The notes: a model not told the origin generated them from the letters alone. Positions 2,829 through 26,072 are shown, counted from the stretch's first letter. The stretch is 32,000 bases of DNA from Isorropodon fossajaponicum endosymbiont JTNG4 (GCF_016592615.1 NZ_AP013043.1:1080001-1112000); one strand, 5' to 3'. A program made the numbers and translations.

Positions 2829-2918
2829 GGAGGGATGGCAGAGCGGCTGAATGCACCGGTCTTGAAAACCGGCAAGGGCTAATACCCTTCTAGGGTTCAA
2901 ATCCCTATCCCTCCACCA
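2829..2918 (+). tRNA. tRNA-Ser (anticodon UGA), class II with long variable arm, CCA encoded
   Basis: Acceptor GGAGGGA/TCCCTCC. Anticodon stem CCGGT/ACCGG with loop CTTGAAA (anticodon TGA). Long variable arm CAAGGGCTAATACCCTTC. T arm TAGGG-TTCAAAT-CCCTA. Ends ACCA. Confidence 0.93.
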
Positions 2919-2919
2919 T
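2902..2919 (+). repeat. attL-like direct repeat (tRNA-Ser 3' end)
   Basis: Perfect 18-bp match to 7607-7624. Similarity continues imperfectly for about 9 nt after a 1-nt indel. Confidence 0.7.
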
Positions 2920-2996
2920 ATTATCATTATAAACATAGGCTTTTAAGCCTATTACCAAAAAACTTTAACCATATTTAAACCACATATATTTGGCAA

Positions 2997-3540
2997 TTAC
3001 TTTAATGTATCGTTTAAATGGTTAGGGCTAAGGTGTGCATAACGCATTGTCATAGCTAATGATGAATGCCCTAAAATCTTTTGAAGTGTTAAAACATCGC
3101 CACCGTTCATAATGAAGTGGCTGGCGAAAGTGTGCCGTAGAATATGAGTGCTTTGCCCTTGTATTTTTTTAATGCCTGCCCTTTTATACGCCAACGCAAA
3201 ACCATTTTTTGATGGTTTTAGTGGTAATTCTAGTTTGTCCGCTAATTCTTTATGAATGGGTATGTATCGGTTTTTGCCACTTTTAGTGTTAAACAGGCTA
3301 ATTTTGCCGTTTTTAAGGTGTTCAGGTTCTAGTGCCTTGGCTTCGCCCCAGCGTGTACCACAGTTAATACAAATTAACGCACATAGGTAGGTATCTTTGT
3401 GTGGTTTTAATTCTGCCAGTAGTTTTTTAATGTCGTCAGTATCGAGGTAGGACAATTCACGCTCTGGTATTTTGATTGTGCGTAGTTCACTCAGTGGGTT
3501 GTGGTAATCAATCTCACTAAGTCGCCTAAGTTCATTGCAA
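2997..3540 (-). pseudogene. int: tyrosine recombinase/integrase, C-terminal catalytic part only (N-terminal arm-binding and SAM-like domains missing)
   Basis: Catalytic signature in the 3' two-thirds of ORF 2997..3794: GTRWGEA (Arg), [21 protein letters not shown] (H-x-x-R), [15 protein letters not shown] (Tyr). Only about 180 aa are integrase-like. Upstream codons of the same ORF belong to a different gene (next feature). Confidence 0.8.
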
Positions 3541-3987
3541 ACGCTTGATAAATAACTCGTCATTGTCCACAAACACCCAAAGACCGTCCCTAAAGTCAAT
3601 ATCACCAGTATCCCCCAACCAGTATTACAATCTTTGTCGTTATAGGTTGGCTTCATACTATCGCCACTGGCACTAATGACCTTGAGACTATCCTCATAAG
3701 TGGTATTGTAGTATTGCTTTAATTTGTCAATATTTATCTGTATGTTCTCTATTACCCTTTCATCAAAGATTGTAATACCAGTGCCAGTCAGCATAATTTG
3801 GAAACGCTTTTGAAATTTTTTCTAATGTTTTTTTGCTAGGCTTTTCAATTACACCACTTTCATATTTTTTTATGATAAAAACAGTTAAAAAATCAACATC
3901 AAGGTCTTGCAATAATCCTTTCCTAGGATTTATTGCATTTGCTAAAAGCGTTGATAGTAAGGTAAGTAACGGTTTATCTGTATCTTG
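3532..3987 (-). pseudogene. cI/LexA-like repressor remnant (HTH_XRE + S24 peptidase), at least 2-3 frameshifts, 3' end deleted
   Basis: The minus strand gives three pieces in three frames. (a) 3987-3763: ...[41 protein letters not shown]..., HTH_XRE-like. (b) The frame of ORF 3794: ...[19 protein letters not shown], the S24 GDSMxPT Ser-nucleophile motif. (c) Ending at TGA 3534-3532: [26 protein letters not shown], the S24 KRL Lys motif. No intact start codon. Confidence 0.5.
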
Positions 3988-4040
3988 CTACCTTCCATCA
4001 ACATTTGGCTACCTTTCATCAACATTTGACTACCCTTTCA
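3987..4040. repeat. 21-bp tandem direct repeats x2.5 (iteron- or operator-like) between divergent repressor remnant and rep
   Basis: GCTACCTTCCATCAACATTTG (3987-4007), GCTACCTTTCATCAACATTTG (4008-4028), then partial ACTACCCTTTCA (4029-4040). Confidence 0.85.
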
Positions 4041-4278
4041 AGTCTAAAAGTGTTGCTACAACAGGAAAAATAGGACAGCCCCTTAAACTACTAAAATTCC
4101 TTAAAAAATTAGTAGTAAACCTTAGGGTGATTTTATGAGCAATAAAAAAATACTAACATTAAATCATAAAGAAAGAGCATATTATCAAATCCTTATTTCA
4201 TTTTGAAAAACCAATCACATCTTTGGTTATTAATTTAGGCATTCAAAAAGTAAGAAATTTGGAAAGCAAAAAGGTTCG

Positions 4279-5319
4279 GTGATTATTAGCAGAAGTGAAA
4301 TTAAATCTTTGGCAACAGGAAAAGACTCGGTATTAGGAATTAATAAGCTGATAAAAAACCTTATCAAAGACATAGAGGATCATAATAATTTTGATTTTTA
4401 TCACCCAAATTCAGGGCTGAAGAATACTAGACAAGTATTAACTAGAAGAACAGCAATAACAGATGATATGTTTGAAGATTTGCTTATTAAATTTGATGAA
4501 GATCTGTTTGAAACCTTTACCACTAAAAAGAATTACAGCATTCAATCAATTGAACAATTAAGAAAGTGTGGTACCAATCAAAGAACTAGACTTTATGAGC
4601 TCACTCAGCCCTATGCTCAACCTTATGAAAAATTAGATAAAGAGTCAAACACATGTTATAAATTAAGCGTCCAAGACATGAAGAATAATTTATGGATTGA
4701 CAAGGATTCTTACTCAACACCAAAATCATTAACACTAAGAATTAAAAGATTATGCGAACAAATATCAAAAATTACCGATATAAATCTTACTGTAACACCA
4801 ATAAAAATAAGCGGAAAAACAACCGAGTACCAGTTCCACTCTGAATTTAAAAAACAAAAAAACAGCACCAAAAAAATTGAAAGCACAAAAACAATTGATT
4901 CAAAACCAACAAGCATTCGCCAACAACTCACCATCTGGGGTGTAGGAAAAAAACAAATTGACACATGGCTGGCTAATCTAGGCAAAAAACAATCAACGAT
5001 GCAATCAAGCAAACGCTCAACCGTCCAGAACGTAGAAGCAAGACATCTAATGCTGGCGGATATATTTATTCAATACTGGGTAAATGGCAAGCAACTTCAA
5101 TTAACAACACAGATTAAGGCAGATGAAGTGCTAGATTGCCTCAAAAAGTTTGGGTTAAGTGCTGCTGATATTAAAAGCGCACAGGAGAAATTAAATAAAT
5201 ATAACGGCGCACTAACTGCCGTTGTTAATAAATGTTTACGAGAATTATCAAATGATGCTGCTGACACGGAAGACATGCGCCAGTTTTTTATTGATCAATT
5301 AGATGAGATAATGCACTAG
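4279..5319 (+). CDS. putative Rep_3/RepB-family replication initiator (N-terminus possibly degraded) with uncharacterised C-terminal half
   Basis: 346 aa with GTG start. The segment YSIQSIEQLRKCGTNQRTRLYELTQ...YKLSVQDMKNNLWIDKDSYSTPKSLTLRIKRLCEQISKITDINLTVTPIKISGKTTEYQFHSEF follows the second winged-helix pattern of iteron-plasmid initiators (RLYELL ... EIN..TDL.V....K.GR....F.F). Iteron-like repeats lie about 250 bp upstream. The same frame upstream (ATG 4135) is interrupted by stops at 4204 and 4231. Confidence 0.5.
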   Translation: MIISRSEIKSLATGKDSVLGINKLIKNLIKDIEDHNNFDFYHPNSGLKNTRQVLTRRTAITDDMFEDLLIKFDEDLFETFTTKKNYSIQSIEQLRKCGTNQRTRLYELTQPYAQPYEKLDKESNTCYKLSVQDMKNNLWIDKDSYSTPKSLTLRIKRLCEQISKITDINLTVTPIKISGKTTEYQFHSEFKKQKNSTKKIESTKTIDSKPTSIRQQLTIWGVGKKQIDTWLANLGKKQSTMQSSKRSTVQNVEARHLMLADIFIQYWVNGKQLQLTTQIKADEVLDCLKKFGLSAADIKSAQEKLNKYNGALTAVVNKCLRELSNDAADTEDMRQFFIDQLDEIMH

Positions 5320-6088
5320 AGAGAGGGCATTATATTGAGCCATACGCAGGAGGGTGCGGCTTGGCGCTTTCTTTATTATTTCAAGGATATGTCCACGAAC
5401 TTCATTTAAACGATATTGACAAGTCTATATGGAGTTTTTGGAACGCCATTGTTAATAACACCGATAAGTTTGTTAGTACAATTGAAAACACGCCTATAGC
5501 AATGGAAGAATGGCACAAACAAAAGGACATTCAAAAGAATAGTAAGCGTGTTAGTAATTTTGACTTAGGGTTTTCTACATTTTTTTAAATAGAACAAATC
5601 GGTCTGGAATTATTTTAAAAGCTGGAGTAATTGGCGGTTTAAAACAAACCGGAAACTATAAATTAGATTGCCGATTTAACAAGCCTAAGCTAATAGAAAA
5701 AATTAGACGTATTGAAAAATACAAGCATCGGATACATTTGTACAATCAAGACGCTGTTAAATTCATGACTAACATGGATAAAACACTACCGAGCAACAGT
5801 ATTTTTTGTATTGACCCTCCTTATTACAACAAAGGTTCGACTTTATATACCAACTTCTACCAACCAAAAGACCATGCAGAACTGTCTAACACCGTAATGA
5901 AATTAAAAACACCTTGGATTTTGACATATGACAATGCAAATGAAATACGTGAATTGTACAAAACACTAACACACTACAATTTTTATTTAAATTACAGTGC
6001 AGCACAAAAAAGAATTGGAACTGAGCTTTTTATTGCCAGCCCTAAAGTTAGAATAACAAGCGACTTAGGCTTAGAAAAAATTGCTTAA
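5307..6088 (+). pseudogene. Dam-type (D12 class) N6-adenine DNA methyltransferase, frameshifted and lacking a start codon
   Basis: Frame 3 from 5307: ...YIEPYAGGCGLALSLLF...LNDIDKSIWSFWNAI (AdoMet FxGxG motif). This frame ends in a T7 tract at 5580-5586. Frame 2 continues FLNRTNRSGIILKAGVIGGLKQTGNYKLDCRFNK...FCIDPPYYNKGSTLY (DPPY catalytic motif). No ATG/GTG/TTG precedes the FxGxG motif in frame. Confidence 0.8.
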
Positions 6089-6181
6089 GAATAGAGTCTA
6101 AGTTTAGGTGTAACTGCTACATAATACCGGAAGGAAGCAAGGGCACATACCAGCAAACTGGCAAAAACAATCATACCTTAA

Positions 6182-6424
6182 CAAAAAGAACTTCGCGTCT
6201 TAGATTGGATTTATGAGCAAACAATCAGGGGATTAACAGCAACCGCCTTTGATAGTTTCAGCCAGAACAAAGACACAAGCTTCAGGTCTCATGTTTCAGT
6301 ACTTTGCCATAAATACGGGTTAGAAATACCACGTCAAATAGTCAAGAACTCCAATACAGGCAGTTATTATAAAAAGTATTGGCTCAGTGACATTGAGAAA
6401 GTCAAAACAATACTAAATAAATAA
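6182..6424 (+). other. possible small winged-HTH DNA-binding ORF remnant, no canonical start codon
   Basis: Open frame QKELRVLDWIYEQTIRGLTATAFDSFSQNKDTSFRSHVSVLCHKYGLEIPRQIVKNSNTGSYYKKYWLSDIEKVKTILNK. The pattern (GLT..A ... S.. L..KYG..I ... YY.L) resembles short phage/island HTH proteins. There is no ATG/GTG/TTG near the 5' end. Confidence 0.2.
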
Positions 6425-6501
6425 CTGCTTGAGTAGTTGCGTTCACCAAATTAAGTGGGCGCGATTGTTTGTATTTTGGTGATGAAAATATCCCTAAAAA
6501 G

Positions 6502-6529
6502 CGAAAGCGGTTTTCCGAAAGCGGTTTTC
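6502..6529. repeat. perfect 14-bp tandem repeat x2 upstream of the YagK/YfjJ-like gene
   Basis: CGAAAGCGGTTTTC at 6502-6515 and 6516-6529. A related CGAAAC follows at about 6535. Confidence 0.8.
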
Positions 6530-6630
6530 AGACACGAAACCATTGGAAGTCTCTACTACTACAATAAAACCACTATTCAAAAATTGGTCATAAGGCGCGG
6601 TATTTTCTATTATCTAATAGAGCTTTACCA

Positions 6631-7380
6631 GTGAATAGAGTTAATAGAAAGTGTGTGGTTTTTGATGATAAGTTTCAATACAAAGATGAGACCATAATCA
6701 TTCAACAAGGTAAGCAAGGTGCGTATGTGGAAATACTAAATTCCATGTTTGAACAATTTGATACAGCCCTGAACATCCATAAAAGAATATTGGTTCACCG
6801 TTTTGACTTACACCCTGCTTACAACACACCCACCAATGAGATTATTCACCCTGCTTACAACACACCCACCAATGAGATTATTCACCCTGCTTACAACACA
6901 CCCACCAATGAGATTATTTCAAAGTTTATGGACAATTTAAAAAAATGGATTGGCAGACATTACGGCATTAAACATATTGGTTATGGCTGGGCAAGAGAAC
7001 AAGAACGAGCCAAAAACCAACACTACCATTTAGTTCTTTTATTAGATGGCGATAAAATTCAACACCCAAAGAAGTTAAATGTTCAAATTATAGAAAAGTG
7101 GACACCATACGGACATTGCCCAGTAGTATTAAACCCTTACTATTTTGTAGATAAAAACAATCAAGCAAAAAGACTGGAAGCACTATACAGAGCCTCGTAT
7201 CTTGCCAAGGTGAGGGGCAAAGGACATAGAGACAGCCAAAAACCAAAGATTATTCAGCAAGTAGGCTTAAAAGAAGCAAGGATATGTCTTATCTCTCTTA
7301 AAAAGGTCTTTAGACCCGCTCCGAGGTCTTTAGACCCGCTCCTGAGTCTCGGAACGAGAAAACAACCTCTAGGGCGTTAG
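6631..7380 (+). CDS. YagK/YfjJ (inovirus Gp2-like) family island protein with internal triplicated 12-aa repeat; 3' end doubtful
   Basis: RILVHRFDLHP...ISKFMDNLKKWIGRHYGIKHIGYGWAREQERAKNQHYHLVLLLDG matches my recollection of the YagK/YfjJ family found in CP4-type islands. GTG start at 6631. The last about 45 codons read through paired palindromic repeats. An alternative frame stops at 7299-7301. Confidence 0.6.
   Translation: MNRVNRKCVVFDDKFQYKDETIIIQQGKQGAYVEILNSMFEQFDTALNIHKRILVHRFDLHPAYNTPTNEIIHPAYNTPTNEIIHPAYNTPTNEIISKFMDNLKKWIGRHYGIKHIGYGWAREQERAKNQHYHLVLLLDGDKIQHPKKLNVQIIEKWTPYGHCPVVLNPYYFVDKNNQAKRLEALYRASYLAKVRGKGHRDSQKPKIIQQVGLKEARICLISLKKVFRPAPRSLDPLLSLGTRKQPLGR
6811..6918 (+). repeat. 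perfect 36-bp tandem repeat x3, in frame (HPAYNTPTNEII x3)
   Basis: CACCCTGCTTACAACACACCCACCAATGAGATTATT at 6811-6846, 6847-6882 and 6883-6918, with no mismatches. Confidence 0.97.
7304..7342. promoter_or_regulatory. two 19-bp direct repeats, 20-bp period, each containing the palindrome GGTCT-TT-AGACC (possible protein-binding sites near attR)
   Basis: AGGTCTTTAGACCCGCTCC at 7304-7322 and 7324-7342. Confidence 0.5.
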
Positions 7381-7606
7381 ATGTAGTGAGCATGTCTTTC
7401 AACTGAAGCATGCTCTTAATGAAAAAAGCTAAAGAATTGAAAGAGGAAAAAGACCTAGACCAATTGTAGTGTTATAGATTTAACGGTCGAATTTATCAAG
7501 CCTTAAAGCAGAGGCACTTTGAATAAAGTGAGTAGTAAAGTGCGTAGTATTTTTTAACGATAATTTTTTATCTATAAATATCAATTACTTATAAGCTAAA
7601 TTACAT

Positions 7607-7624
7607 TCCCTATCCCTCCACCAT
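7607..7624 (+). repeat. attR-like direct repeat (duplicate of tRNA-Ser 3' end)
   Basis: TCCCTATCCCTCCACCAT with no tRNA body upstream, i.e. a displaced tRNA 3' fragment. Confidence 0.7.
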
Positions 7625-7815
7625 TATTCTCACCATCTCATGCACAAAACACACACTACTCACTAAGTGTCGCGACGTTGTCGCTGTTCGTGCCATCAGA
7701 ATAACTTTGATAGCATTTATAATTCTTTATTTTGAGGTTAATTTAGCTTATGTTTGACAGTGTTCATCTACTGCCTACTTTGAAAGGTACGGTTAGATAA
7801 TTTTAAAAAACCGCT

Positions 7816-8145
7816 TCAATACGCAAACATTTCTTGTAAACACTGGCATAAAATTTGCTGAGTTGTTTGATTAATGACACCTAATTTTTTAATCAGTCTT
7901 GACTTGTCAATCGCTCTCATTTGGTCTATTAAAATTAGACCCTTCTTTTCCTGAAATTTTACGGATACTCGGCAAGGGTACTCAAACCCTTTAGTTGTCA
8001 TTGGAGCAATAATAATCGTTGATAAGGCTGAAAGTTCATTTGGTGAAACCACAACACAAGGCCTAGTTTTATTAATTTCTCTACCTTTTGTTGGGTTAAG
8101 ACTAACCAGCCACACGTCAAATCTATTAACTGTTTTATCGTTCAC
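7816..8145 (-). CDS. mazF: type II toxin, MazF/PemK family endoribonuclease
   Basis: 109 aa with GTG start. FDVWLVSLNPTKGREINKTRPCVVVSPNE...IIAPMTT...LILIDQMRAIDKSRL fits the PemK/MazF fold signature. The start overlaps the antitoxin stop by 1 nt (TAGTG). Confidence 0.85.
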   Translation of the reverse strand: MNDKTVNRFDVWLVSLNPTKGREINKTRPCVVVSPNELSALSTIIIAPMTTKGFEYPCRVSVKFQEKKGLILIDQMRAIDKSRLIKKLGVINQTTQQILCQCLQEMFAY

Positions 8146-8402
8146 TATTCTAGGTCACTATCGTCAACCAAAGTAGCGTCCAACCATTCACTATCAATTT
8201 GCTCCTTGCCGAATAATTTTATATGGTTTTTTATACTTTCTTGCCAGCCATCTCTAGCTGTTATACTTTTATGAGGTTTTATTAATAATCCCTCATTTAC
8301 TACTTTTAGCTCAAGTTCAAGACCACTTAAATGTGCCTGTTCTATAATTGGCTTAGGAATTCTAATACCCTGTGAGTTGCCAATTTGAATTAAATATGTC
8401 AT
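8145..8402 (-). CDS. mazE: type II antitoxin, MazE/AbrB (SpoVT) family
   Basis: 85 aa. IQIGNSQGIRIPKPIIEQAHL...LELKVVNEGLLIKP is a swapped-hairpin AbrB-like motif, followed by an acidic C-terminus. Lies immediately upstream of mazF. Confidence 0.8.
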   Translation of the reverse strand: MTYLIQIGNSQGIRIPKPIIEQAHLSGLELELKVVNEGLLIKPHKSITARDGWQESIKNHIKLFGKEQIDSEWLDATLVDDSDLE

Positions 8403-8432
8403 TATATTTCTCTCTTAATAAATATTTCTTAT

Positions 8433-8451
8433 GTAATTATAACGTAATTAC
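8433..8451. promoter_or_regulatory. inverted repeat in the mazEF promoter region (candidate MazE operator)
   Basis: GTAATTA-TAACG-TAATTAC, located 31-49 nt upstream of the mazE ATG on the minus strand. Confidence 0.4.
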
Positions 8452-8900
8452 TTTTATTAATAAGTGCACTCGAAAATTAGGAAACGGTATCAGGGATGAC
8501 AAACAACACTCTATGTTAAAATTCATATCTTTTGCAATAGTCTAATTTTATTGGACACAAAGATAGCCTTATAATACAAACCATAAGGAGGTCAGTAATG
8601 ACACAATATAAATCAAGAAAACAACGAGTGACTTTTACCGTTGAACATTCTGTTCAATACCCCCTTGAGGGGGGAACACTAGATTATGCCAAACTCATGG
8701 TGCATGAGAATTACACCAATAAAAAAAATCATGATAATATCAGGAGCTTGCTCCTCAGCAGTTAGCAGATGGAGAAAACAATACCTAGCAGAGCTTGGTG
8801 GACAAACACCAGAGTCAGGCAAAGCGCTGACTTCTGAACAACAAACAATACAACTGCTTGAGAAACAACTTTGGCGCGCACAAAGGGACAATGAAATCTT

Positions 8901-9804
<904 letters not shown>

Positions 9805-9982
9805 AATGTGTCCAAGTAGGTTAGAGCATTGCAATATTTTGGCAGTATCATTTTAAGATTACTTCCAATTAATTTATAGTACTTTATATGCTGTAACGCC
9901 CTATAAAACAATCCTTTATTTTACATTACTTATTTTGCAAGTCAAGAAATTAAAGCATTCGCTTGTCTTCTTAGTTGTTATA

Positions 9983-10253
9983 CTAAAGTTTTCGTCTATC
10001 AAGTTGAACAAGTAAATCAATGACTTGATGAGGGTCAATTTCTAAAGCTTTGCAATATTCAATTACCGCTACAATGTCTAAGCGTCTATCGTCCTGTTTC
10101 AACTTTACTAATAAGAGAGCGGGGTACTTGTAACCTTGCTGCTAAGGCTCTTTGAGACAAGCCTAACTTATCATCTCTTTGCTTAAGCCAAAACTGACGT
10201 AAAGCAGTATGCACCTTGGAATGAACTGACTGTCTAAGTTTAATGTGTTTCAT
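9983..10253 (-). pseudogene. XRE-family HTH regulator (HipB/HigA-like), single frameshift
   Basis: MKHIKLRQSVHSKVHTALRQFWLKQRDDKLGLSQRALAARLQVPRSLISKVETGR, stop at 10088-10086. The +1 frame continues DRRLDIVAVIEYCKALEIDPHQVIDLLVQLDRRKL to a stop at 9985-9983. Together these give the canonical ...SK.E.G.RRLD..E pattern. Confidence 0.6.
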
Positions 10254-10450
10254 TATTCCTATTTTAGAAACAATATATAATGCGCCTATTCTAGGAGCAA
10301 ACAAAACAACACAAAATGAAAACACATAAGCACAATCCACTAATGGCAGTTGGCCTGTCTGGTGCTAGTGCTGGTATTATTCACGACTCGAAAAAGCCAA
10401 GAAAAAAAGAAAAAGGGCGTTAAAAGAAGGGTGCCACTCTTGGCTTTACT

Positions 10451-24954: not shown

Positions 24955-25683
24955 TCAAGCCGCTTTTTTCAATTCAGCCATCTTTTGAGCAGGTGTTAAA
25001 TACCCAATCGCTGAATGAATCCTTTTGTAATTATACAAGTAGATATAACCCTCTACATTTTGCACGACTTCACTATGATTTGCAAAACTTTGATAATTTA
25101 ATCTCTCAGTCTTCAGACTTCTAAAGAAACGCTCCATGACCGCATTATCCCAACAATTACCTCGCCTGCTCATGCTTTGAGTAATGTTGTTCTTGTTGCA
25201 ATAATCAATAAAAACTTTAGAAGAGTATTGAGTCCCTTGATCAGAGTGAAACATGTGTTTATTTGTATTGGGCTGGTGTCTAGACACAGCATTACTAAGC
25301 GCATCCTTTGCCAACTGAGCATTAGGCTGTTTTGACAATGCCCAACCAACAACTTGTCTTGAGCCTAAATCCAACACACTGGCTAAATAACTCCCACCTT
25401 GATAGGTTTTGATATAGGTAATATCACCAACCCAATGCGTATTAATTGATTGCTGCTCAAACACACGATTTAATAGGTTTTTTGCCTTTTTAAACATCAA
25501 TCTAGTATTAGGGTAATAATGACGCTTTCTTGGGCGTATGGCAACTACATTGGCTTTTTTCATTAGCGTTGCAGTTTGGTAAATACCAATGTTATAACCT
25601 TGGTTATTCAAAACTACTCGCATTCTGCGTTTGCCATAGGTGTATCCAACTTCAATAGCAGTTTGTTTGATTAATTTAATCAT
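24955..25683 (-). CDS. IS3-family OrfB DDE domain (uninterrupted here from the internal ATG; upstream -1 frame still carries TGA at 25761-25759)
   Basis: 242 aa with [28 protein letters not shown]. Identical to copy 1 apart from the frameshift. Confidence 0.8.
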   Translation of the reverse strand: MIKLIKQTAIEVGYTYGKRRMRVVLNNQGYNIGIYQTATLMKKANVVAIRPRKRHYYPNTRLMFKKAKNLLNRVFEQQSINTHWVGDITYIKTYQGGSYLASVLDLGSRQVVGWALSKQPNAQLAKDALSNAVSRHQPNTNKHMFHSDQGTQYSSKVFIDYCNKNNITQSMSRRGNCWDNAVMERFFRSLKTERLNYQSFANHSEVVQNVEGYIYLYNYKRIHSAIGYLTPAQKMAELKKAA

Positions 25684-25808
25684 AGCGTTGGTGTTGTTGT
25701 TTACTCGCTTATCTTTGACTTGATAGTAATAACTACTGTGAGGAAGTTTGAGTAATGCTCATAATTCTTTAGTATTGTATTGTTGGCAAGCCTTGTTTAT
25801 CTTGATAA

Positions 25809-26072
25809 TCATATCACTTGGTGATTGTCCACAGCGAACAAGGCTGTTGCCTTTTTTAAGATTTCATTGTCCCTTTGTGCGCGCCAAAGTTGTTTCTCAA
25901 GCAGTTGTATTGTTTGTTGTTCAGAAGTCAGCGCTTTGCCTGACTCTGGTGTTTGTCCACCAAGCTCTGCTAGGTATTGTTTTCTCCATCTGCTAACTGC
26001 TGAGGAGCAAGCTCCTGATATTATCATGATTTTTTTTATTGGTGTAATTCTCATGCACCATGAGTTTGGCAT
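25809..26072 (-). CDS. IS3-family OrfA (as in copy 1)
   Basis: 87-aa translation identical to 8686..8949. Confidence 0.7.
   Translation of the reverse strand: MPNSWCMRITPIKKIMIISGACSSAVSRWRKQYLAELGGQTPESGKALTSEQQTIQLLEKQLWRAQRDNEILKKATALFAVDNHQVI

Follow-up and report, generated by a model that had tools for sequence, protein, structure and literature searches.

A probable patchwork remnant of mobile DNA at the tRNA-Ser(UGA) gene of a vesicomyid clam endosymbiont

Introduction

In the genome of the Isorropodon fossajaponicum endosymbiont JTNG4 (GCF_016592615.1), the 3' end of the tRNA-Ser(UGA) gene is repeated 4.7 kb downstream, and between the two copies lie pieces of an integrase, a repressor, an iteron replicon, a DNA methyltransferase and a YagK/YfjJ-type protein. 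What kind of element does this locus record, and was its present arrangement ever that of a working element? The initial annotation had answered with a decayed element of compact design, resembling a phage-inducible chromosomal island (PICI) or an integrative plasmid, in which integrase and repressor face an iteron-rep-dam-yagK module. We followed up this proposal within a window of 32,000 nucleotides (NZ_AP013043.1:1080001-1112000, with positions counted from its first letter), using metagenome and Logan contigs that were fetched for comparison and are numbered here with the letter L. Three ORFs of the interval encode products 100% identical to proteins that NCBI lists for this symbiont.

Vesicomyid symbionts, which belong to the SUP05 clade, have undergone reductive genome evolution and are without the mobile-element islands of their free-living relatives (PMC5310779; bioRxiv 10.1101/2020.02.01.930370). 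Our comparisons indicate that the interval is probably a non-functional remnant of temperate mobile DNA, inserted at the 3' end of tRNA-Ser(UGA) by a tyrosine recombinase, and that its modules (int', cI', iterons-rep', dam', orf80 and yagK'), all truncated, likely form a patchwork drawn from different element classes.

Results

A duplicated tRNA 3' end bounds foreign DNA

The tRNA-Ser(UGA) gene is the one tRNA carried by the whole window (Table 1), and the 18-mer TCCCTATCCCTCCACCAT, made up of its last 17 nt and one further base, occurs exactly twice in the window, with 0 copies expected from dinucleotide-preserving shuffles. The repeat is exactly 18 nt long, and similarity to the tRNA collapses 5' of the attR core. 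Downstream of attR follows a heptamer, TTATTCT, that also stands 3' of tRNA-Ser in many related contigs, whereas the 3' flank of attL differs. A Phage_integrase domain (E 5e-21) adjoins attL, 78 nt from the tRNA gene, and G+C content is 0.29-0.32 around 3750-4750 compared to 0.36-0.46 in the flanks. The duplication, far beyond chance, bounds foreign DNA with a tyrosine-recombinase gene on its tRNA side, and both the repeat and the recombinase stand as initially annotated. Integration duplicated the final 17 nt of the tRNA together with one further base; attL and attR are the result, and the tRNA stayed whole.

A candidate third, internal att copy at 3605 (12 of 18 positions matching) was rejected, as about nine such matches are expected per window by chance. 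An 18-mer match in the viral contig L092 was also dismissed as chance, because it falls within a structural gene and neither a tRNA nor an integrase is close by.

Table 1. Features of the tRNA-Ser(UGA) locus and its right flank, with window coordinates.
Feature	Position	Strand	Basis
tRNA-Ser(UGA), intact, with the 3' end as target of integration (attB/attL)	2829-2918	+	ARAGORN; Rfam RF00005, 58.3 bits
attL core, final 17 nt of tRNA-Ser and one T	2902-2919	+	exact 18-mer
int', catalytic C-terminal ~187-190 aa of a P2/HP1-type tyrosine integrase	2997-3578	-	Pfam Phage_integrase
cI', middle fragment of a repressor in two frames, both ends missing	3590-3873	-	half HTH_3, 'W(L)LTG' linker, 'SGDSMKP' motif
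oriV-type leader of the Rep module	3868-4135	+	conserved leader 3868-3987; 2.5 iterons of 21 nt 3988-4040; conserved promoter-proximal block
rep', divergent Rep_3-superfamily initiator gene, frame broken	4136-5319	+	Rep3_C; alignment to L001
dam', D12-class N6-adenine methyltransferase pseudogene	5310-6088	+	tblastn with Kosakonia plasmid Dam; MethyltransfD12
orf80, 80-codon orphan open frame	6183-6425	+	six-frame translation
yagK' module, leader and YagK/YfjJ-type gene (ORF 6631-7380)	6431-7395	+	Pfam YagK_YfjJ_C; alignment to L196
attR-proximal arm, AT-rich, non-coding	7396-7606	no strand	no detectable relatives
attR core, second exact 18-mer copy	7607-7624	+	exact 18-mer, then TTATTCT
Further accessory DNA between attR and the ancestral neighbor gene, outside the repeat-bounded element, same hot spot	7625-9985	no strand	mazF/mazE and IS3 remnant

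The modules are truncated and have relatives in different element classes

Homology between the interval and its relatives starts or stops abruptly at the module borders, at 3558, 3868, ~5313 and ~6431, and each module is missing an end. The nearest relatives fall into three element classes: a PM2-like prophage for int', elements resembling integrative and conjugative elements (ICEs) and bearing a type IV secretion system (T4SS) for iterons-rep', and AlpA/YagK islands for yagK'. Abrupt borders combined with relatives in different classes indicate that the 4.7-kb layout of int-cI facing iteron-rep-dam-yagK is not a native design, and the compact architecture of the initial annotation is not supported. 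Relative to the tRNA, int, rep and yagK each point the same way as their counterparts in intact relatives. In hidden Markov model (HMM) searches for the predicted domains, Phage_integrase, Rep3_C, MethyltransfD12 and YagK_YfjJ_C passed, while HTH_3 stayed below threshold and Peptidase_S24 gave no match.

The integrase remnant is read as part of a fusion open reading frame (ORF), 2997-3794(-), in which Pfam recognizes Phage_integrase and only the tail of Int_N. It retains 187 of ~320 aa (full-length homologues have 315-328 aa), the N-terminal ~130 aa with the arm- and core-binding parts having been deleted; activity requires these domains as well as the catalytic one, and int' is not a complete integrase. 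Related integrases are common in the SUP05 clade, and the closest, P0087 (94% aa identity), is encoded in contigs L188-L190. Nucleotide identity to L188 is 89% over 2894-3558 and stops abruptly at 3558. One end of L188 is the 3' end of the same tRNA-Ser, followed by int, two small ORFs, a 273-aa helix-turn-helix (HTH) repressor and divergent early and structural genes. L188 is identified as a PM2-like tailless prophage by its genes for a packaging ATPase and for a double-jelly-roll capsid protein of PM2 type (P2_N E 3e-14, P2_C E 2e-16). Its early genes include no recognizable replication initiator, and the contig has no rep, dam or yagK homologue. The prophage spans ~10 kb in tRNA-Ser(UGA) (L188:1-10784) and was sampled in three sequencing runs.

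Beside int', the repressor remnant lies partly in ORF 3763-3960(-), where HTH_3 scores 17.9 bits, below the cut-off of 23, and covers only profile positions 26-49, the second half of the domain. This segment resembles the second half of the HTH in the L188 repressor, with 39% identity over 33 aa (E 3e-6). The first ~25 codons and the promoter are missing exactly where L001-type homology starts (3868), and at the other end the C-terminal domain has gone. Peptidase_S24 found no HMM match in cI' at E <= 0.1, leaving the SGDSMKP motif as its sole support, and the S24 assignment was rejected for lack of HMM support. Of the cI/LexA-like repressor first annotated here, a sub-threshold HTH likeness is seen, and the peptidase half has no HMM support.

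A reduced iteron array precedes a divergent Rep_3-type initiator

The iteron-like repeats and the Rep_3-like initiator of the initial annotation were both borne out. Tandem Repeats Finder reported 2.5 copies of a 21-nt unit at 3988-4040, homologous to full arrays in relatives. At 3868 homology to L001 sets in abruptly, extending as far as 5313, with >90% nucleotide identity in the leader, and Rep itself is 69-74% identical to its relatives at the amino acid level (69% to L001). In L001 the array consists of 2.4 copies of a 20-nt iteron, an AT-rich spacer and 5.4 copies of a 21-nt iteron; arrays ahead of rep in L001, L002 and L004 have 5.4-6.7 copies and a second cluster, each with its own sequence. 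Compared to L001, the window has lost ~204 nt between 3987 and 3988. This deletion breaks off where an iteron unit begins, and iteron cluster 1, the spacer and three iterons of cluster 2 went with it. A further deletion of 26 nt between 4177 and 4178 shifts the rep frame, so that the first ~52 codons are lost and the surviving ORF (4279-5319) encodes 346 aa, compared to 396-405 aa in relatives (87%).

This ORF matches the second winged-helix domain (WH2), Rep3_C, with 23.3 bits against a cut-off of 21.1, and the relative P0002 scores 25.1 bits. Rep3_N (WH1) has no direct Pfam match, and the family profile retrieves proteins with both Rep3_N and Rep3_C at E 1e-6 to 1e-4 from 1.84 billion sequences. 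Because these distant matches are canonical Rep3_N+Rep3_C initiators, the family is best regarded as a divergent branch of Rep_3. It is tiny, with 9 representatives at E < 1e-30 among the 1.84 billion proteins, and has an extra, family-specific C-terminal region of ~160 residues. An AlphaFold model of a full-length relative was too poor to test the fold (predicted local distance difference test score, 51), and profile searches of PDB sequences with Rep and YagK found nothing. A scan of viral contigs returned no Rep relative and one distant YagK relative.

All five Rep contexts that we recovered (L001, L002, L004, L197 and L198) are ICE-like. In L001 and L197, rep is followed by TrbC/VirB3/VirB4, and in L004 it occurs with TraE/K/B/V/C; L002 is a decayed version of such a context. 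L198 carries an ICE-type maintenance gene set with Bro-N, a 618-aa ParB_N protein, DUF2857, topoisomerase III and DUF3577, and we take its ParB-DUF2857-TopoIII-DUF3577 set to resemble the ICEclc/pKLC102 type. The upstream flank was scanned for tRNA genes in three of these loci, L001, L002 and L004, and in each a tRNA (Phe, Asn and Asn, respectively) lies on the same strand ~70-320 nt upstream of iteron-rep, in the orientation that rep has to tRNA-Ser in the window. The window replicon is ~950 nt from its tRNA, behind int'-cI', compared to ~75 nt in L001.

These contexts raise the possibility, which we hold tentatively and with some doubt, that the Rep_3-like module marks an undescribed family of tRNA-integrating conjugative elements with a tRNA-proximal, plasmid-type theta replicon ('integrated conjugative plasmids'), seen so far in SUP05-clade and unclassified marine metagenomes only. 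If so, the remnant would record both an integrated conjugative plasmid and a PM2-like tailless virus reaching a lineage of symbionts that is regarded as mostly shut off from mobile DNA.

The right half holds a broken methyltransferase gene and an altered yagK

The predicted Dam-type methyltransferase was confirmed as a pseudogene. It aligns to a Kosakonia plasmid Dam in two frames with 60-61% identity from residue 28 onward, and this start (codon ~28) is flush against the rep stop codon. The frame changes in a T-run at 5580-5586, and the DPPY motif is intact. Each frame is weak singly; joined, they match MethyltransfD12 with 57.9 bits and the NCBIfam model 'dam' with E 7e-16. A complete single frame with its N-terminal motif is not present. 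Between dam' and yagK', orf80 lacks an ATG, GTG or TTG codon from which to start near the 5' end; Pfam, PHROG and NCBIfam have no match for it, and none of the fetched loci contains a homologue. The arm next to attR matched none of these loci by blastn or tblastx. Although tblastx seemed to connect orf80 with L197 and the arm with L007, both connections were rejected as spurious, as they consist of ~22-bit high-scoring segment pairs carried by sum statistics.

The YagK/YfjJ-like assignment holds at E 7e-12 (YagK_YfjJ_C, PF11726; 46 bits against a cut-off of 25.8), with a further match to REP_ORF2-G2P (E 3e-7), and YagK' keeps the invariant columns, including the HYH and S-Y-L-A-K motifs. Homology to L196, a contig with AlpA, a small ORF and YagK, extends from ~6431 to ~7395 at ~85-90% nucleotide identity, judged by eye from the alignment. 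YagK' has 249 aa compared to the 190-208 aa typical of the family. Three perfect tandem copies of a 36-bp unit at 6811-6918, single in L196, insert 72 bp (24 aa) into the conserved core, and two extra A's in the run at 7238-7242 cause a +2 frameshift that replaces the conserved C-terminal KDYxxSRL block. A tandem of two 20-bp copies at 7304-7343 is a duplication not seen in L196, whereas two copies of a 14-bp repeat at 6502-6529 in the leader are common to both. With the 36-bp unit single and the 20-bp duplication absent in L196, these tandems point to recent replication slippage in the symbiont genome. Other YagK relatives (L007, L008 and L011) are islands adjoining tRNA-Asn or tmRNA, in which a P4-type integrase is accompanied by cargo, for example type I restriction-modification; L150 is a YagK island with a P4-type integrase in the same tRNA-Ser(UGA), and AlpA is present in L007, L011, L150 and L196.

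Decay is recent and deletional

As first annotated, breakage is pervasive and structural phage genes are absent. At least eight lesions were counted, including the 204-nt iteron deletion, the 26-nt rep deletion, the dam and yagK frameshifts and the 72-bp tandem insertion. Pairwise ratios of nonsynonymous to synonymous substitution rates (dN/dS) against the nearest relatives are 0.08 for int, 0.17 for yagK and 0.24 for rep, and the retained segments contain no stop codons that arose by point mutation. Low dN/dS and the lack of such stops suggest that decay is recent and was driven by deletions, homopolymer slips and tandem duplication. Decay by deletion and slippage is expected of a symbiont genome in reduction.

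The view that Rep and YagK are the only long intact frames did not survive alignment to relatives, given the codons lost from rep and the insertion and frameshift in yagK. On the sequence alone, the remnant would have lost the ability to excise, replicate or transfer unaided.

The same tRNA is an integration hot spot in relatives

A metagenome search with the 3' 25-mer of tRNA-Ser recovered 95 loci, 51 of which keep the synteny rpmG-rpmB-tRNA-Ser. The interior genes are absent from these contigs with the sole exception of L179, which has a RES/Xre toxin-antitoxin pair and a 74%-identical P2-type integrase after tRNA-Ser in the same orientation. None of the relatives shares the right flank of the window, and the comparison therefore bears on the empty site proposed in the initial annotation only indirectly. 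A scan of genome contigs with AcnB for an empty site in sister genomes yielded only distant relatives, at identities <=80%, and the exact sequence of ribosomal protein L28 had no match on record.

Elements of several kinds occupy this tRNA elsewhere. In L151 an unrelated integrase lies at an attR whose repeat is 30 nt long, and the element in L166, where 28 nt are repeated, bears a repressor. A further orphan partial copy of the tRNA is found in L176, with a repeat of 52 nt, and all three of these copies mark attR sites of other elements. The variety of integrases and cargo in L150, L151, L166 and L179 indicates that tRNA-Ser(UGA) is an integration hot spot for several integrase families in the SUP05 clade.

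Two further arrangements were seen. In L176:1-203, three different tRNA 3'-end fragments are stacked directly upstream of the attR-type tRNA-Ser copy, and these may be scars of serial integrations or belong to an element with several att-like ends. L181:39-5169, from a different organism, has two complete tRNA-Ser(UGA) genes 5 kb apart flanking two large secreted proteins with no integrase, and this pair may reflect duplication of the tRNA gene rather than an element.

To the right of the repeat-bounded interval is the window gene at 9985-10340, whose orthologue is separated from tRNA-Ser by no more than a few hundred bases in eight contigs of free-living SUP05 type. This placement indicates that the gene is the ancestral neighbor of the tRNA, and that everything from 2919 to ~9900 is accessory. 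The gene itself, 9985-10340(-), is XRE/HipB-like with an HTH and is frameshifted near 10086; its orthologue has 81 aa. Just past attR, an apparently intact mazF/mazE pair at 7816-8402(-) matches PemK_toxin and MazE_antitoxin in Pfam. It is followed by the remnant of an IS3-family transposase at 8686-9804, in three ORF pieces, with an inverted second copy at ~25160-25981. A heavily deleted relative of this IS3-family element stands directly after tRNA-Ser in L130.

Discussion

The interval is a degraded member of the broad class of tRNA-integrated tyrosine-recombinase elements, and in part it resembles several known systems. With PM2-like (Corticoviridae-type) prophages it shares a P2/HP1/F108-type integrase at one end beside the attachment site, a putative leftward CI-type repressor and the kind of plasmid-type replication module that these prophages swap; unlike them, it has neither the double-jelly-roll capsid protein P2 nor a P9-type ATPase, and only an integrase segment of ~660 bp is demonstrably common to the window and L188. 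It also has the iteron-rep module that stands at the element head beside the tRNA in T4SS-bearing ICEs of SUP05-clade bacteria, in the same orientation to the tRNA, but it carries no T4SS, relaxase, partition or other transfer genes. The E. coli cryptic prophages CP4-57 and CP4-6, whose heads consist of a P4-type integrase, AlpA and YfjJ/YagK, encode YagK_YfjJ_C proteins with the same HYH and SYLAK motifs, and L007, L008, L011 and L150 are tRNA- or tmRNA-linked islands with a P4-type integrase like them. The window differs from these islands in having no P4-type integrase or AlpA, and its yagK' is frameshifted and at the attR end.

The replicon is distantly related to the Rep_3 iteron plasmids, and by analogy would work like them. 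RepE of F, pi of R6K, RepA of pPS10 and RepM of Acinetobacter plasmids share with the window family the WH2 match and tandem iterons of 20-21 nt directly upstream of rep, whereas the window family is chromosomally integrated, has no direct Rep3_N match and has the additional C-terminal region, and its window copy is broken. The likeness to PICIs and P4-like satellites is superficial: structural genes are absent, and an integrase and repressor face a replication initiator and its repeats. Such satellites are about 10-15 kb, compared to 4.7 kb of truncated modules of separate ancestry with no helper relationship evident. Scans of the element ORFs against Pfam and PHROGs gave no match to packaging or capsid-hijack genes (terS, cpm/ppi, sid/psu-like). 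Having no packaging-hijack genes, no capsid or ATPase genes and no T4SS, the interval qualifies as neither a PICI or satellite, nor a corticoviral prophage, nor an ICE, respectively.

Could a single small mosaic element instead have decayed in place, either an integrative plasmid or PICI-like satellite or a PM2-like prophage with an acquired Rep_3 replicon, so that int-cI facing iterons-rep is ancestral? Just two att copies enclose everything, as this would predict, and the PM2 early region also has a leftward repressor operon facing a rightward replication gene. Corticoviral prophages use P2/F108-type integrases and CI repressors and exchange plasmid-type replication modules (Krupovic & Bamford 2007, PMC1950889), and the close integrase relative in L188 is a PM2-like prophage at the very same tRNA. 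Three points count against the patchwork reading: tandem insertions are not proven by any surviving internal att remnant, an intact relative of the element as a whole did not turn up, so that one mosaic ancestor and several are not separable, and no relative has tRNA-Ser joined directly to the sequence from 7625, which makes the empty-site test indirect. Whole-element blastn against plasmid and phage collections returned short dam and integrase matches only. Nevertheless, the junction at 3868, where cI' has lost its first codons and promoter, is a scar and not an operator region. Furthermore, the known contexts of the Rep family are all of T4SS/ICE type and none is viral, in keeping with the viral-contig scan, L188 lacks homologues of rep, dam and yagK, and a satellite would be expected to carry the packaging or capsid-redirection genes that are absent here. 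We consider a single mosaic unlikely.

Two other readings concern what the remnant can still do. Identical 18-bp cores, low dN/dS suggestive of recent inactivation and the frequency of related integrases in the clade would fit a remnant that is still mobilized, as a 4.7-kb circle excised across its perfect attL and attR by a related integrase and an excisionase that a co-resident element provides in trans. This is very improbable, as the element has no intact integrase of its own, its arm-type binding sites have probably gone with the internal deletions, a circle with a deleted iteron array and frameshifted rep could not replicate, and vertically transmitted clam symbionts offer few possible helper elements (bioRxiv 10.1101/2020.02.01.930370). 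Domestication of one part for host use, either the 346-aa Rep fragment or the YagK-like protein with its 12-residue triple repeat, finds some encouragement in two long open frames that NCBI annotates as proteins and in pairwise dN/dS < 0.25. However, low ratios are also expected from purifying selection in the lineage of the intact relatives followed by recent inactivation, Rep' lacks 52 N-terminal residues and its iterons, YagK' is interrupted within its conserved core and has lost its KDYxxSRL block, and the neighboring genes are all broken. Such a role for either protein is extremely improbable.

For the patchwork remnant, family biology suggests how the parts may have worked. When intact, the P2/HP1-type integrase would recombine attP with attB, regenerating the tRNA, and would carry out both insertion and excision, while a cI-type repressor would have kept the element silent. 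After excision, a Rep_3-type initiator acting on 21-nt iterons could fire plasmid-style theta replication. Several elements in turn, or one mosaic, would then have been whittled down to 4.7 kb by repeated internal deletions, small indels and tandem slippage. We favor serial insertion at the hot spot: the phage would lie closest to the tRNA, an ICE-type element next to it and perhaps a YagK island beyond, and later deletions would have taken out the interiors together with the internal att sites.

For symbiosis genomics, the locus offers a snapshot of a shrinking, maternally inherited symbiont genome disposing of mobile DNA. The route of disposal is by nested deletions, homopolymer frameshifts and tandem slippage, not point mutations, and it has spared the essential tRNA. 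This larger-genome vesicomyid symbiont lineage appears to have been exposed to at least a PM2-like tailless phage and a conjugative-element replicon. For mobile-element biology, the analysis flags tRNA-Ser(UGA) as a multi-integrase hot spot of the SUP05 clade, and a very small, divergent Rep_3 family tied to ICE-like elements of the same clade. No major concept is changed by these findings, which describe an ordinary fossil of a known broad class of element and not a compact new type of satellite; its value is as a record of exposure to mobile DNA, and of deletional decay, in a clam symbiont.

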